DNA from: Chiloscyllium plagiosum
Taxonomy: Eukaryota
DNA: 64,000 nt
NCBI RefSeq assembly: GCF_004010195.1
Contig: NC_057719.1
Span: forward strand, 39,968,872-40,032,871
Reading direction: 5' to 3'
Positions 1 through 58,156 of this stretch are shown one piece after another. Within the stretch, counting starts at the first letter, position 1, and every line of letters starts with the position of its first letter. The notes beneath the pieces were generated by a model. The model saw only the letters and a program-made list of their open reading frames with translations, did no database searches and was not told the DNA's origin. The position numbers and the translations under genes were made by a program.

Positions 1-1714
1 GTCAAGACCATATAAGATATAATAGAATCAGAATATGTACTATTTCATTAAAATGATAACTTGTTAAAAAAAAAATTCAAGCTGGTGGAGGTGTTTAAAG
101 ATGTAATAGTAGATGGGGAAAAAGAATATTTCCATTGATTGGTGGGTTTGACATATTGTGTAAAAGATTGGATTTCTTATGTTCAAATCACTGGAATGGG
201 GCTTCTGTCCACTCACCTAAGAGGCTAATGCTTTGATAATTATGGAACATAAGGTTTTGATTTAGGTTAATCTTAAATTTATGTTGTCCAGTCATGCAGC
301 TGCATTGGCTACAAGCAGTTCACAGGTTGAGTGTTCTGCAACAAGTAATACCTGACTATCCAAAGCTGTTGTACCATCTACAAAGAACGTGTGAGTAGTA
401 CATTGGAATCTTTTCCACAAACTTGGCAGCTCCAACACAAGGAGTTTGTCACCCTCTAGGACATAGCATTCAAATATAATGATAAATGTTCACCACTTCA
501 ACCACTGTACCAGCCTGACTGTAGTGTGCCACCATTGATACTTCACAGCAACTCACGATGGCTTTTTCAACAGTACCTTTTGTACCTGTGATCATTAATG
601 CATGGAGGGGGAAGGGAAACAATGACATTGGAACTGAAATAACTACACATAGGCCAGTATTCCTGTTACCAAGTCACCCTTTGTTTACTTGTACACAGTA
701 CACTGGCTGTGGCCAGCCAGCTTAGAGTCAGTCCCCTGAACTGAGGGGATACCAAATCCCTGTTTATATTTTTTTCTCTAACAGGGGTAGTACTTATTTT
801 TCCCCAGCACTCCAGTTTTGTGTGTTTGTAGGTGTAAGACACAGTAAATGAACAAGTGCATAAAACTTTATTCATAATCCCCCACCAGGAAGAAAGAAAA
901 CACCTGGATGGCATTGCCGCCCTCCCATGTTTGTTTTTGTTTCTAACTGAGAAGATTCTAATCTTCTGGTTATTTTTTTTCCTCTTTTTTTCTCCCACAC
1001 TACTACCTAACAGTGGTAGTGCTTATTTTTCCCCAGCACACATGTTATGTGTGCAGATGTAGGACACAGTATATGAACAATGAGTACATAAATCTTTATT
1101 CATTGTCCACCACCAGGAAGGAAAGAAATACCCGAGTGGCCAGTGACCAGCAATGCCCTTCTCATCAAAGAGGAATGCTGTGTGATCAGGAGGTGAAGGT
1201 GGGGTGGGGTGCAGGGACTAAATCAAAATAGAGTCAGAGGGGGCAATAAAGCACTCCACACCCTGCGGTGTCCACCTCTCCCTTAAAACCTCAAGAGTGT
1301 CGGTAGACAGTGTGCTCCTCCTTCAGGGGCATCCAGGTTCAAATGTAAGCGCGCAAGAGGGGCAGGCAATCTGCCCTAAGGCCTCCCACTGCACGGCCAG
1401 CTGCCTGGACCGGTTTATGGCCAGTTTGGCCAGGCCCAGAAACAGATCCATGAGGAGGTCCTCTGACCTGCCTTTCTTCCCTCTGCACCTGGTGCCTGAA
1501 GATCAGGAGTGTGGGGCTTAAGTCTAACCAAAAGCAGAGGAGAAGGTTTTTCAGAAAACTAAAAAGGGAGTGCAAGTGCCCACACTCAATATATACATTG
1601 TACATGGACTCCATCCACTGTTTATTTATTTTTTCTTAACAAGCGTGTAAATCTTTATTTATATTCCACCACCAAGAAGCAAGGAAACACCTGAGTGGCC
1701 AGTGACAAGCAATA

Positions 1715-1925
1715 GAGATGGAAATGTGTTGCTGGAAAAGCGCAGCAGGTCAGGCAGCATCGAGGGAACGGGAGAATCGACGTTTCGGGCATTAGCCCTT
1801 CTTCAGGCTAATGCCCGAAACGTCGATTCTCCTGTTCCCTAGATGCTGCCTGACCTGCTGCGCTTTTCCAGCAACACATTTCCATCTCTGATCTCCAGCA
1901 TCTGCAGACCTCACTTTCTCCTCAC
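1715..1925. mobile_element. Palindromic Penelope-type terminal-repeat insert nested in a Tx1 unit
   Basis: ~85-bp inverted arms; TGACAAGCAATA duplicated at 1703-1714 and 1926-1937; CTGAAGA...CGAAACGTC core on the minus strand. Confidence 0.8.
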
Positions 1926-3594
1926 TGACAAGCAATACCCTTCTCGACAAAGGGGAATGTTGTGTGATCAAAAAAGTTAAGGGGAGTGCAGGGATTAAAT
2001 CAAAATAGAGATGGAGGGGGTATAAAACACCCACTCCCTGCGGTGACCACCTCTCCCTGAAAACCTCACGGGTGTTTGTAGACACTGCATGCTTCCTCTC
2101 CAGGGACACCCAGGCAGGGACATAACTATGGAAGAGGAACAGGCAATTGGCCCTAACGACCCCCTCCAATGCCCACTGCATTTATGGCCAGTTTGACCAG
2201 GCCCAGGAGTAGACCCATGAGGAGGTCCTTTGACCTAGCGTCCCCCCTCCTCCGCACCGGGAGCCCAAAGTTCAGGAGCGTAGGGCTGAAGTGCAACCAA
2301 AAACAGAGGATAATGTTTTCAAGAAAATCAAAAAGGGACTGTAAATGTCCACACCCTATATATATATATACATGGTCCATAGACTCTATCCACTTTTTTT
2401 TCCACACTACCGCCTAACAGCAGTACATCCCTGTTTATATTTGTTCTCATTTAAAAAAAAATCAGACCCCATTAAAAAGGAATACCAGTTAACTGACTAT
2501 ATAATACAGCAATCAGATCCTCCCCCAAAAAAGCGGAACCCAACAGCAGCAGTAACACGTTGACTGTGGTCCGGCTAGCTCAGAGTCAGTCTCCTGAACT
2601 GAGGAGATTCTAAATCTCTTGTTAACGTTTTGTTTTCCCTTTTCTTTCTTCCAAACTAAGACAATTCTAATCTCCTGTTAATTTTTTTTTGTGCTTATAT
2701 TTTCCCCAGCACCCATGTGTGTGTGTAGGTGTGAAACACAGTGAAAAACAGCAGGTGTACAAATCTTTATTCAATTCACACCACCAGGAACAAAGGAAAC
2801 ACTTGAGTGGCCAGTGACAAGCAATGCTCTTTTCATCAAAGGGCCATGCTGCGTTATCAAACAAGTGAAGGGGAGGGCAGGGATTTAATCAGAGTTGGAG
2901 GGGGGAAATGAAACACTCCACTCCCTGCAGTGCCCACCTCTCCCTGAACAGCGCAAGGGTGTTAGTAGACACTGCAAGTTCCTCCAGGGACACCCGGGCG
3001 TGGACATAGCTGCGGAAGATGGGCAGGCAATCGACCATAACGACCTCCTCCACGGATTGCTGCCTGGATCTGTTTGTGGCCAGTTTGGCCAGGCCCAGGA
3101 GCAGACCCATGGGGACATCCTTTGACCTACTTTCCTCCCTCCACACTGGGTGCCCAAAGATCAGGAGCATGGGGCTGAAGTGCAACCAGAAAGAGGAGAA
3201 GGTTTTTAAGAAAATCAAAAAGGGGGTATAAATGCCCACACCCAATATATACATGGTCTATGGACTCGATGCCTTGTTTACTTTTTCCACACTGCTGCCT
3301 AACAGCAGTACATCCCCTGTTTACTTTTTTTCTCAGTGAGCTGGTTGTCTGACACTTATGTTTTTTCCCTTTCTTCCACCAGAAAGTAGTAGTGTCATGT
3401 TGGGCATGTGTCGGACATAGTGAAAAACAAGTGTGTAAATCTTTATTTATATTCCAGTGCAAGGAAGAAAGGAAACACCTGAGTGCCCTTCTCCAGGGAC
3501 ACCTGGGCCATCCCCTGTTTGTAGTGTCTCTGCCTCAGTCAGTGTAACTGAGATTGTGAATTAAATATTGTGTCTCTGCCCCAGTCAGTATATT

Positions 3595-3891
3595 TTAGAT
3601 TACATTTCCTACAATGTGGAAACAGGCCCTTTGGCCCAACAAGTCCCACACCGACCTTCCGAAGAGCAACCCACCCAGACCCATTTGCCTCTAACTAATA
3701 CTCCTAACACTAAGTGAATTGGCCATGTTAATTTGCCCAGACCTGCACATCTTTTGGACTGTAGGAGGAAACTGGAGCACCCGGAGGAAACCCACGCAGA
3801 CACTGGTAGAATGTGCAAACTCCACATAGACAGTCGCCCGAAGCTGGGTCCCTGGCGTTGTGAGGCAGCAGTGCTAGCCACTGTGATGCCT
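3595..3891 (-). mobile_element. tRNA-derived HE1-like V-SINE nested in the Tx1 array
   Basis: tRNA-like head, GTGGAGTTTGCACATTCT core, AATCT tail. Confidence 0.85.
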
Positions 3892-5439
3892 CATTCCCTG
3901 TTTATATTTTTTCTTCTTTTTCTTTTTTTTTCCTAAGGTGATTCTAATTTCCTGTTTTTTCTTCTCCCTTATCCCCACACTATTGCCTAAATGTGGTTGT
4001 GCTTATATTTTCCCCAGCACCCATGTTGTGTGTGTGTGCAGGTGTGAGACACAGTGAAAAGACAAACAGATGTACCAATCTTTATTCAATTCCCACCACC
4101 TGGAAGAAAGGAAACACCCGAGTGGCCAGTGACAAGCAATGCCCTTCACATCAAAGGGCAATGCTGCGTGATGAAAAAAGTGAAGGGAAGGGTCGGGATT
4201 AAATCAAAATAGAGTTGGGGGTGGGGGGGGAATAAAACACTCCAATCCCTGCGGTGTCCACCTTTCCCTGAACAGCTCGAGGGAGTTGGTAGATACCACG
4301 TGTTCCTTCTCCCAGGACACTCTGGCTCGCCCAAAGATCAGGAACGTAGGACTGAAGTGCAACCAGAAACAGAGGAAGGTTCATCCTGTTTATTTTTCTT
4401 TCTTTTTTTAAGAAGAAGAAACAAATACTTCAAAATAAACTCCTCCTCAATGGGAAGACACCAACAGAATCTGTCTCCTTTTTAATGCAAGAAGAAAAAA
4501 AAAGCAGAGCCCTTCACTCACACTGATCCAGCTCCCTCAGACAGCTCTGAGTGAACAGGATGTCTGACACTCCTGTTCTTTTTTTACTCATTTTTTTTCT
4601 TTTCCCCAGCACCCATGTGTGTGTGTGCAGGTGTGAGACACAGTGAAAGACACAAGGTGTACAAATCTTTATTCAATTTCCATCACCAGGAAGAAAGGAA
4701 ATACCCAAGTGGCCAGTGACCAACAGTGCCCTCCTAAGAGGGCAATACTGCGTGATCAAACAGTGAAGGGAAGAGCAGGAATTACATCAAAATAGAGGAG
4801 GAAAGAAAGCACTCCATTCCCTGCGGTGCCCACCTCTCCCTGAACAGCCTGAGGGAGTAGGTAGATACCACGTGCTCCTTCTCCCAGGACACCTGAGCTC
4901 GTCCAAAGATCAGGAGCGTAAGTCTGAAGTGCAACCAGAAATAGAAGAAAGTTCATCCCCTATTTATTTTTTCTTCTTTTCCAGCACCCATGTTGCATCC
5001 CCTGTTTATATTGGTCAGCCAGTCCTCCTTGATAGTCCCAGATTAACAACCCTAATCAAGGACCTCATAGTCATCAAGCTCTACCTGATTCCAATCACTA
5101 CATGAATAAAAGCCAGTCTCTCCATGTTGACTCAAAAATATATTGTTGCTGAATCAAAATAGAGCAGACTATGGGTGTATCAACACCATGTGCGGGCCAC
5201 ATTCCATGAGCAAATAAAAAAAAAAAGTAAAAGATTACAAAGGGACAAATTTAAAAAGTAAAGGAGTTAGAAGTGATGTTTTATATGCAGCAACTTATTA
5301 GAATGTGGAATACCCTACCAAAACCATTAATCAAAACAATATTCTTAAATTACTTTTATCAGGGAAGTCGATTTACCTATATCTAACTTGGGAACGCTTG
5401 TACTCTCAAATGTGATTCCATACAGGGGTGTAATTTTAA

Positions 5440-13249: not shown

Positions 13250-14355
13250 AGTTGAAGAGTATGTTGCTAGAAAAGCACATATGGTCAGGCAGCATCCAAG
13301 AAGCAGGAGCGTCAATGTTTCATGCATATCAGGAATGANNNNNNNNNNNNNNNNNNNNNNNNNNNNNNNNNNNNNNNNNNNNNNNNNNNNNNNNNNNNNN
13401 NNNNNNNNNNNNNNNNNNNNNNNNNNNNNNNNNNNNNNNNNNNNNNNNNNNNNNNNNNNNNNNNNNNNNNNNNNNNNNNNNNNNNNNNNNNNNNNNNNNN
13501 NNNNNNNNNNNNNNNNNNNNNNNNNNNNNNNNNNNNNNNNNNNNNNNNNNNNNNNNNNNNNNNNNNNNNNNNNNNNNNNNNNNNNNNNNNNNNNNNNNNN
13601 GCACGCTAAGAGATAAATGGGAGGGGGTGGGGCAGGAGAGATGGTAGCTGGGAATGAAGGTGGGGGTGAAAGTGATAGATCGGAGAGGAAGCTGAAGCAT
13701 TTAGATGAGAAGGAAGATGAACAGGTATGACCATTCAAGAGAGTGGTGCTGAGTTGGAAGTTTGAGACCTGGATAAGGTGGGGGAGGGGAAATGGGGGAT
13801 GTGGTGAAATCCACATTGATCCTGTGTCGTTGGAGGGTCACAAGATGGAAGATGAGGCGTTCTTCCTCCATGTATCAGGTGGTTAGGGTTTGGTGATGGA
13901 GGCCCAGATCTTACATGTCCTTGGCGGAGTGGGAGGGGGATTTAGTGTTTAGCCATAGGGCAGTGGGGTTGTTAAGTGTGGGTGTCCCAGAGATGTTCTC
14001 TGAAACAATCTACAAGTTGGCAGCCTGTCTCCCCAATGCATCCAATGTGGTAACATATCATCTACTGCATCCATTGCACCTGATGTGGTAAACCCTGCTG
14101 ATCCTCCCCTTCCACCCCACCAACCTCTGGATACACCTCATCACACTCTGCTATTTCTGCCACCTACAAACAGACCACACCACCAGATATATTTTCCTCC
14201 CCACCTCTATCTGCATTTCAGAGAGGCTATTCCCTCCGTGACTGCCCAAAATGTTGATTCTCCTGCTCCTTTGATACTACTTGACTTGCTGTGTTTTTCT
14301 AGCACCGCACTCTTCGACTCTGATCTCCAGCAACTACAGTCCTCACTTTCTCCTA
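13250..14355. mobile_element. Degenerate Penelope-like element with a GIY-YIG endonuclease remnant and inverted structure, spanning the gap
   Basis: Minus-strand 13800-14040 reads IGETGCQLVDCFREHL...EEERLIFHL...INVDF with stops. The plus strand reads IIYCIHCT. Terminal repeats of the 1715/56897 family lie at both ends. Confidence 0.7.
13339..13600. other. Assembly gap (262 N)
   Basis: Run of n. Confidence 1.
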
Positions 14356-34600: not shown

Positions 34601-37600
34601 TAAAATAGGTATTAAAGTAAAATGATGCTAGTTGAGGACTGATCATCCATTTTTATTATAATCGTAACAATTTACATCTTTTGAATATAAACTAACTTAT
34701 CTTGGAAAATATTTCTTGGGCAGTAAGAGAAAAAAAAGTACAAAAACAAGCAAAGGCCACATATATTAAAAAAAAATGCTGTCAATTTTGGATTTTTCAG
34801 GCACCTCAAATTCATATCCCTCAACTCACTGATCAATTTTTCTGCAAACGTTTAACCTGGTTATCATCACTATCCAAAGTGACAATCCATTTATTTTCTC
34901 AGTCTTTGAAGAAATAATTTAAAATTTAGCTCATGGTTCCCTGGTATAGCTACATCAAAAATTAATTAACACTTAAAAAATACCACATTTTTAAAAACGT
35001 CACTGCCCCCATTCCCTTTGGAGGTTAGACCTTGATGAGCTCCTGGGTTATCTGCTCCAAATTCATTTTTGACCAATCAGGTTAAGTTTTACGGCACTTC
35101 AAAGAATTTGAACGCTGTCTCTCTAGCTTATTGCTATATTTTTAATTTTCTAGCTTCAATCAAAGACTTTCAGAGATTATTATGTTAATTGCTGTAGCTT
35201 GACTGAGCTTTAAGGGAGGCAGACCACCTTTCAAGTGTACAGGCTAGCTGTATCTCATGCTAACAGCATCTGTTTCTGGGACCAATGCTGAATATAGAGC
35301 CAGCCAATAACACATTTCCACTGAAATCCTATTGAACAGCAGACAGATGTTTAACCAACTGCAACAGTAATCACACATTACAATAGAACTTTACAACAGG
35401 CCAATCCAATTTTTTTTAACTCATCGTGTTTGACTACATAACATCAGTAACTGCATTTCAAAACCAACTATTTGGATAATTTGAAGGCATGATAGGAACT
35501 ATATAAAGATTCCTGTCATTCTGAACTGAGCCTTTTTCTCCATCCTTTTTTTAAATAGGCCCGGTGAGAACAGCTTTGTCTCTCTTATCATCACATCATA
35601 GCAAAAGTGAAATGAAACAGTAAACCAAATATCTAAAACAATTTTGTTTGTACCTGCATCTTGTCCACCATAGCTACATGGAAACTGTACAGACAGGGAC
35701 AGCTGCATGCAAATTTGTGTCTTGCCTGCTGAACTCTCACCAACTATTTCAGTAATTCCCATTAATGGGATTCCACCTCCAAGTAGTGAGTCCACGACTG
35801 GACAACCCATGCTAAGTTTTCGCTTCTGGGTTGGAAAAGGACATTCTCCATTGTATATTTGCAGGGCTGAGGAAAACACATTGAACAAAAAAAACTTAGT
35901 TTATTGCATATAATTTTAATTATTTAGAAATATTTGTTAGAATCAAAAGCTTAAAGTATAATTTACAGTTGAAGAAGCATATACACACTCACTAAGATTA
36001 TAAACTTTGGAGAGATATATACTTTTCAATACATATTGTTATTCTATTTCACTTTAATAATTCAAAGCCATTTCTTGCCCTTCTTGTTACTTACAGATCC
36101 TAACAGGCAGGAAAGCAGACAATAATTATATTGGTTCATCTCATACTCCACATTACAATTCAAGGTGCACAAAAGTAAGAAAATTCAATTCACCAACTCT
36201 TTTGATCCTTCTCAATTATTCATTTAAAGAAAGGAAGTATGAAGTTGCATTCAAAGAAAGAAATTACTAAATGATGTTTACAAGCACAATCTGTTCTATA
36301 ATACAATTTGTTAATATGTTCAAGCAGTGAAACCTCGGTTCCTTGTTTGTGAAAAATAATCCAAATTATTTATTCAACTTACATTACCATTACTCTCAAA
36401 ATTTAGTGTTTTTCTGATAACAATTCACTTCTCTCTCTCTCCACAATTTCAAAAGCATTGGCTGTCCACAAGCATCTCACCCAATACCTACTTTTATTGT
36501 GTAACCCTGCAATGATTTTAGGAGCAGACCTAACCACAAAGAACAATACAGCTGATCACAAATCATTTTTCATATGACATCAGGTGCATGTTTTTAAGGA
36601 TGCAATCAGGATGGAGCGCTTGCAGATTTTGCCCATGCCTTGCTCAAGTGGTATTAAGTTAATCATTATGAACTAACTACCAAACCACTAGAAACTAACT
36701 TTAGATGTTATCTGCAGCTTGAACATATGTACCTGTGATTCCATATGACAGCATTTATCTACTATAAACCCAAGCTGTGTGTTCTTATTCTATTTACAGT
36801 TAACATTGAAATCTCACAGCTCTGTGGATGGCTTAATTCATAATTCCCTCAATCTCTGTCCAATGAATTTAAACTCAATAACTCAGAGTTAAGCTCTAGA
36901 TTGGCATTCATCACCATCAGCTACATAAAGGCACATTATTAGAAACTGGAACATAAATTATACCTGCATTGTGATTAAGCTCTGTAAAACTTACAAATTT
37001 TAAACATAACAAATCTGAAGATTTAAGCAAGTGTTAAGCAACTGTTTCAGCAAAATATTAAATTGAAGCCACTTAAATATCACTGAACATTAAATAACTT
37101 TAAAGATTCATTACAAGACATCAATTTGTTCAAAGTTTTAGAACAATTTGTGAATTATGTTAAAACATATTCAAGATATTTTTAAGTGTTTATTTGGCAC
37201 TGATTTCTGATCTTGCAGAGATATGATTATATTCTAACTTTTACACACCTGTTACCACAGGATCACTCTTTATTGTTGCTGCAACAGTTTTATGCAAATA
37301 TTGCACATCAGAACTGGACAACTTAGTGAGTCTCTGCAGATCTGGTCCCGAAAGACATAAGATTTCTTTCATTGTTTGGATGTTTGCTATGGGAGAAAAG
37401 ATTTTTTTGTAGAAATATTACTGCAAAACATACTTGGCTATGACAAACTAGACCAGAAACAACCATTATTACCAATTGAGCCATGTGGTCATACAGCTAC
37501 CAAATTCTATACACAATAATAGGTACATGGCACTAAATCCCTTACCAAAATAACAAATCCTACTGTTTTTTATTCAATGCAAAACAATAAAATGTCTACT

Positions 37601-39803: not shown

Positions 39804-58156
<18,353 letters not shown>

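Follow-up and report, generated by a model that had tools for sequence, protein, structure and literature searches.

Organization of the locus

The 64-kb window (the whole stretch of DNA analysed here) contains, on its minus strand, an LTR-like element of about 227 bases that reaches from position 635 to 5102 and is interrupted at its TATA-like box by inserts totalling about 4.2 kb (Table 1). Read along the minus strand, its motifs come in the order TG (at 5102), CCAAT, TATAAA, AGTAAA and CA (at 635); the label LTR is inferred from the end motifs, without a library match. The flanks of the element, checked for the target duplication of 4-6 bases expected of a solo LTR, are identical at three of five bases. 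Neither a primer site nor a purine tract was found beside its ends, sequence comparison revealed no second copy within the window, and scanning the viral, metagenome and genome contig collections with the LTR end pattern gave 0 matches. The arrangement may resemble that of an abundant LTR family of cartilaginous fishes.

The inserts include nine or ten LINE ends (A, B, C, D, E, D2, F, G, H and I), all on the minus strand, stacked at the TATA-like site and 72-85% alike over the longer overlaps. Unit E is 41% identical over 93 amino acids to the C-terminus of the Xenopus Tx1 ORF2 (blastp E 2e-11), the last 110 residues being alignable. By tblastn the Tx1 ORF2 end was matched in units B, C, E and G and weakly in H, and nowhere outside the array in positions 1-3590 and 3895-64000, the one exception being a weak reverse-transcriptase match at 19.4 kb that belongs to another LINE. 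The motif CCTGTTTATA occurs four times in the array and not once in the remaining 59.5 kb. Only about the last 140 residues of ORF2 survive in the array units; the reverse-transcriptase and APE endonuclease domains are absent from these truncated copies, and the assignment to the Tx1 clade is based on homology of the ORF2 end. The named proteins related to that of the LINE are from whale shark, sawfish, horn shark, sawshark, sturgeon, turtles and crocodile. Together with the Rad51-family exon described below, they indicate that the window is of vertebrate origin, a shark or ray being the likeliest source. Pfam and Atlas gave no name to the ORF2 end, weak Pfam-type matches were obtained for P0002 (RVT_1) and P0012 (zf-RVT), and locus searches of the collections with the ORF2 alignment confirmed 0 among 49, 51 and 17 candidates. 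Nested self-insertion into ORF2 was considered and rejected, as the displaced upstream part of ORF2 was not found by tblastn.

Table 1. Features of the LINE array and of the LTR-like element that harbours it.
Feature	Positions	Strand	Basis
Host element, downstream part: target core, short hairpins, AGTAAA signal-like hexamer, CA end; reference for the tails	635..772	-	sequence, fold; LTR label by motifs
Unit A: Tx1 3'UTR end, without tail	778..920	-	alignments
Tail of unit B: short, type C, 28 bases, with an A tract on either side; extra paired hairpin change	944..971	-	shuffle test, fold
Unit B: Tx1 ORF2 end and 3'UTR; 5' junction base as in C and E	995..1611	-	alignment, tblastn
Unit C: Tx1 ORF2 end and short 3'UTR, interrupted by hairpin element (~1715-1924); without tail	1636..2392	-	alignment, tblastn
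Unit D: 24-base Tx1 3' stem-loop stub and target copy (2426-2441)	2402..2441	-	alignment, fold
Extension of long type-C tail; possible unique tag of donor locus	2452..2563	-	without match elsewhere in window
Second tail of unit E: long, type C; resembles local LTR part at 83%, with three linked pairing-keeping changes	2564..2623	-	alignment, shuffles, fold
First tail of unit E: short, type C, 29 bases	2651..2679	-	shuffle test
Unit E: Tx1 ORF2 end and 3'UTR	2690..3267	-	blastp to Xenopus Tx1 ORF2, tblastn
Unit D2: stub, 5' junction as in D, and target copy	3287..3324	-	alignment
Short type-B tail of unit F, 29 bases	3333..3361	-	0/500 shuffles against 4500-4577
Unit F: internally deleted Tx1 end and target copy (3509-3522)	3372..3522	-	alignment
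Short type-C tail of unit G, 25 bases	3932..3956	-	shuffle test
Unit G: Tx1 end, internal deletion common to H, and target copy (4382-4394)	3966..4394	-	alignment, tblastn
Extension of long type-B tail; possible unique tag of donor locus	4409..4502	-	without match elsewhere in window
Long type-B tail of unit H; from target core, can fold into hairpin	4503..4577	-	shuffles, fold
Unit H: 5' junction and deletion as in G, and target copy (4954-4967)	4595..4967	-	alignment
Unit I: stub of ~17 bases and outermost target copy with TATA-like box (4996-5013)	4979..5013	-	alignment
Host element, upstream part: TG start, CCAAT adjoining TATA-like box	5014..5102	-	sequence; LTR label inferred

The extreme 3' end of the LINE (995-1025, 2402-2425 and 3287-3310) folds into a short stem-loop in which differences between the copies are paired and whose stability was reached by 4, 2 and 0 of 200 shuffles, respectively, and the stubs D and D2 consist almost exactly of this stem-loop. 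The hairpin-forming element that splits unit C (1715-1924) has a 12-13 base LINE duplication at its ends and gave weak Rfam hairpin matches only. Rfam searches of stretches of the array pointed to no snRNA or tRNA origin of the unassigned sequences: there were 0 matches in 3895-5400 and eight weak matches below the gathering score in 500-3590, seven of them on the inserted hairpin element. ARAGORN found 0 genes in 1-3590.

A tRNA-type SINE, which we take to be like the shark HE1 family, lies within the array at 3600-3891, also on the minus strand. Its 5' end abuts a target copy (3892-3910), which would fit placement by the Tx1 machinery or a landing in the same spot. Between its 3' end and the next target copy are 77 bases (3523-3599) with a 20-base direct repeat, and alignment to the window gave no match outside the array for 3524-3590. 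Elsewhere in the window are a Rad51-family exon at 35502-35900 on the minus strand (Pfam Rad51, E 5e-12), which we assume to be XRCC3-like, a 30-base tandem repeat of about eight copies rich in GATTGG/CCAATC motifs (40434-40670), and, far from the array, an assembly gap of 262 N (13339-13600).

Extra pieces between two A tracts

Five of the units carry six extra pieces of sequence, unit E having two in series. On the minus strand all five tailed units have the same layout, namely the LINE end, an A tract, the piece, a second A tract and a target copy. Every piece starts at the target core (CCTGTT-like) directly behind poly(A), and all six, with the extensions of the two long ones counted in, lie between two poly(A) tracts, as is characteristic of 3' transduction by LINEs. 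The A-rich flanks of the pieces hold 8-13 A in 14 bases, with at least nine in 11 of the 12 flanks against a background of 2% of 58,511 14-mers, a count that is partly circular as the piece boundaries were set by eye. Each tailed unit is bounded on both sides by copies of the target-site duplication, of which those at A and E have decayed; the target copies measure about 11-16 bases versus 25-60 bases for the pieces. The long pieces run on into about 110 (2452-2563) and about 95 (4409-4502) unrelated bases before the second A tract, and both leave LTR-like sequence ahead of the LTR's own poly(A) signal. When seven stretches were exhaustively aligned to the rest of the window, no score exceeded that of shuffled queries.

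The first-pass annotation had already listed these pieces, all of which are present with coordinates within 1-2 bases. It had described them as ending at a CCTGTT-like site followed by poly(T), in agreement with the core and the A-rich minus-strand tracts found on both sides of every piece, and had placed them directly downstream of a Tx1 poly(A) on the minus strand, which is borne out by the ORF2 and 3'UTR ends together with the layout of the A tracts.

None of the hexamers AATAAA, ATTAAA, TATAAA and AGTAAA occurs in any of the six tails over the 50 bases leading up to the second A tract, and in two tails a weak AAGAAA lies inside the first A tract. The poly(A) signals of the tails may have decayed, the copies being about 15-25% apart from each other. 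As a possible signal setting the length of the 25-30 base tails, we considered a hexamer formed by poly(A) and the TATA remnant, and rejected it, since no tail junction has such a hexamer. The bases TA precede the core in none of the six tails as compared with eight of the ten target copies.

Some further details of the tail ends were observed. The short tails (944, 2651, 3333 and 3932) end a few bases past an initiator-like motif, which lies at a distance of about 28 bases from the TATA-like box, and hence close to the expected start of the LTR's own transcript. The two extensions share a 12-base match in opposite orientation (2468-2480 and 4476-4487), the score of which was reached by one of 1000 shuffles in one of 16 comparisons; this may be due to chance or to antisense inserts in the donors. 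In both extensions, a plus-strand A run lies close to the point where the likeness to the LTR stops.

Two types of tail

The tails fall into two types. In type C, the long piece resembles the local LTR segment: 2561-2619 and 704-761 are 83% identical over 59 bases (E 1.4e-11 against the window), and 0/500 shuffles reach this score, in line with the earlier claim that 706-765 reappears diverged at about 2564-2623. The three short pieces, 944-971, 2651-2679 and 3932-3956, match 2545-2623 at scores reached by 0/500 shuffles each, and by 0, 1 and 1 of 500 when the first 8 bases are dropped. Their match to the local segment is weaker, with 6, 37 and 0 of 500 shuffles reaching the score for the full pieces and 2, 357 and 16 of 500 without the first 8 bases. 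The tails are closer to one another than to the local segment. All four type-C pieces share three bases absent from the local segment; at two of these the local copy may be the one that has changed, the ancestral state being unrecorded elsewhere locally.

The three linked differences of the long type-C piece are compatible with pairing in each of two alternative hairpins, and one further paired change is present in the piece at 944-971. These paired changes look like divergence between subfamilies, and can also come from repair between hairpin arms without selection. Hairpin stability was not significant in the long tails (29 and 62 of 200 shuffles) and was reached by 5/200 shuffles for the local segment. 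As judged from the alignments, the kinship of type C with the local LTR is shown, and type C would be its sister.

Type B comprises the long piece of unit H and the short piece of unit F. A different sequence had been noted at about 4520-4577 and 3345-3362, and the two do match each other: the score of 3333-3361 against 4500-4577 was reached by 0/500 shuffles. The first-pass annotation had counted both kinds of piece as LTR variants; this holds for type C, at 83% to the local segment. For type B, the match of 4503-4577 to the local segment was not significant either in the first test (161/500 shuffles) or in the anchored test run after that result (561/3000). Compared with type C, the score of 4503-4577 was reached by 6/500 shuffles, by 36/500 and 38/3000 with the core dropped, and by 0/2984 random stretches of the window, so that the likeness of the two types is weak. 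Scanning the viral collection with the type-B pattern gave 0 matches. Type B is carried by two distant units, F and H (3'UTRs 70% alike), from one starting core, which suggests a multi-copy target-like sequence, and it probably represents a more distant LTR subfamily.

Imported or local origin of the pieces

At base 7 of the core, all six pieces have A, while nine of the ten target copies have G and the tenth is unclear through a deletion (Fisher p 0.0009 on the assumption of independent rows, which does not hold). The local segment and the outermost target copy, which is certainly local, both have G. Some of the inner target copies may themselves have been imported, which would weaken the 9/10 control. 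The contrast at base 7 argues against local duplication and supports the view that the pieces are not copies of the local LTR segment.

In two small trees of seven and five short rows, units E, G and H form one clade with a support of 92 (3'UTR) and 94 (ORF end). The 3'UTRs of E and G are 90% alike, and their near-equal tails share an extra base. Taken together, this indicates that tails can be inherited. Units G and H have an internal deletion and the 5' end in common, yet the tail is short and of type C in G, and long and of type B in H; this, along with the presence of type B on both F and H, shows that tail type does not follow the LINE tree. By parsimony on this weak tree, the six pieces reduce to about four capture events, and the three short type-C tails may be one inherited capture. 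The earlier statement that the pieces independently support target specificity was therefore overstated, as some tails are inherited and about four events do not amount to six independent proofs. The tails do support the targeting of related LTRs, less independently than first claimed.

Proposed origin by 3' transduction

The locus displays stacked LINE units, duplicated cores, two-tract tails of two types and a difference between these tails and the local LTR. We consider it probable that the pieces are short 3' transductions from Tx1 parents that sat at the same core of other LTR copies, such parents being deduced from the tails. In the proposed course of events, a Tx1-type LINE would insert by target-primed reverse transcription at the core in the TATA-like box of an LTR family, and because the core is duplicated at each insertion, copies would stack. 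A parent at the same core of another LTR copy would sometimes be transcribed through its own poly(A) into the LTR, as the two-tract layout suggests. The read-through RNA would gain a new poly(A) 25-30 or about 170 bases further on and would then be copied into the present locus with its tail. At least two kinds of donor flank, type C and type B, would have contributed, and the serial tails of unit E could reflect two rounds through type-C donors. With tails passed on within a lineage, about four captures would suffice for the six pieces.

The pattern could also arise if one or two old captures had become fixed as the 3' end of a LINE subfamily and were inherited ever since, in which case the tails would say little about the sites of the immediate parents. 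The near-equal length of the three short type-C tails (25-29 bases), the similarity of E and G in both 3'UTR and tail, and the common 5' ends (B, C, E; G, H; D, D2), which show that fixed templates were copied, all fit such inheritance. We nevertheless find it unlikely, because the two tail types, their long and short forms, the two tailless units, the mismatch between G and H and the series in E need at least about four events. A purely local source appears quite unlikely; in this scenario the local LTR segment would have been copied once, through a long target duplication, gene conversion or unequal crossing-over within the array, and the copy would have decayed before being copied again. 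It is true that the array is repetitive, that C and E each follow a stub with the same junction and that G and H share a deletion, as would be seen with block duplication; the 83% identity of the long type-C piece to the local segment also lies within the range found from unit to unit. However, the target copies are only about 11-16 bases long and have G at base 7, in contrast to the longer pieces with A, the hairpin changes are paired, type B bears no significant likeness to the local segment, C and E belong to different 3'UTR groups (76%), and the extensions match nothing else in the window.

The third alternative needs no read-through donor: reverse transcription could have begun on a separate short polyadenylated RNA, or with another LTR copy as DNA template, before switching to the LINE RNA. 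Template switching has been described for Tx1-mobilised elements in the account of PMC4494074, and no poly(A) signal accounts for the tail ends. Still, all six pieces start at the core in the TATA-like box, which would lie upstream of the start of the LTR transcript, and a random jump is unlikely to give such a common start; we hold this explanation to be very improbable.

Comparison with known systems

In its layout the array resembles human L1 3' transduction as reported in PMC13009371, where the LINE end is followed by a first poly(A), a short flank and a second poly(A), and where tail length is typical of the source. According to that report, two poly(A) tails mark partnered transductions, 71% of which are shorter than 100 bp, and 79% of human transduction ends have a poly(A) signal. 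Most of the tails described here are likewise shorter than 100 bp. They differ in that they start in a relative of the target sequence, while those of L1 start in unique DNA, in that 0/6 have a strong poly(A) hexamer, and in that their sources are putative.

For the target-specific LINEs R1Bm and R7Ag, read-through and 3' transduction are stated in PMC7265360. There too a site-specific LINE is transcribed into the downstream target, and that sequence can be copied. R1Bm and R7Ag are R1-clade insect elements that reside in rDNA and were studied by assay, whereas the present elements are Tx1-type, reside in an LTR-like repeat, are read from old genomic copies and have tails from more than one target variant.

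Among Tx1 elements, the crocodilian families prefer LTR elements, and stacking at one target is described for relatives (PMC4494074). They thus share with the array a Tx1 LINE with an LTR element as the target; the main text of PMC4494074 gives neither a site within the LTR nor 3' tails. Tx1L of Xenopus laevis targets Tx1D, and its target-primed reverse transcription is directed by the endonuclease, as described in PMC1919474. Tx1L (P0086, YTX2) has in common with the array the ORF2 C-terminus (41% identical over 93 amino acids) and a fixed site in another mobile element, the target being a DNA transposon in Tx1L and an LTR-like element here. No report of Tx1 tails derived from LTR subfamilies was found in the literature covered, the scope of which left aside Repbase Reports and most subscription journals.

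Short units and the LTR promoter

The 5' ends of the units form groups: the first base is common to B, C and E, to G and H, and to D and D2, and both C and E follow a stub. At eight of the ten 5' junctions the core is followed by G, while T is found there in the local LTR and in all four type-C tails. Two independent cases only (D/D2 and I) have a G that clearly does not derive from the LINE, and at B, F and G/H a template could have supplied it. A target-like stretch coincides with the B/C/E junction, whose position could be fixed by microhomology. An extra 5' G has been taken as a copied cap in L1-type insertions (PMC2912911), and transcription from the flanking target was proposed for the Tx1-mobilised SINEU in PMC4494074.

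Rather than random truncations, the short units might be members of small non-autonomous families dependent on the LTR. The TATA box, being duplicated, would remain on the upstream side of every insert, transcription from the LTR promoter would yield a capped RNA beginning a few bases inside the insert, and the tail would come from the downstream LTR. We regard this as a rather doubtful lead. If the LTR promoter did drive short families, it would explain the common 5' ends, the composites of a stub and a long unit, and the junction G.

Implications

The ingredients of the proposed mechanism, namely L1 transduction, read-through of R1Bm and R7Ag into the target, and the preference of Tx1 families for LTR elements, are already known. 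The finding would gain in importance if the short units turned out to be driven by the LTR promoter, in which case the tails would be a record of hops between LTR subfamilies. If the interpretation as 3' transductions is right, the tails are tags by which parent copies can be traced, and one LINE lineage would have used the same core in several diverged LTR subfamilies. The tails would then also map the tolerance of the endonuclease, with AACAGG kept and base 7 free, which would be useful for work on site-specific LINEs.
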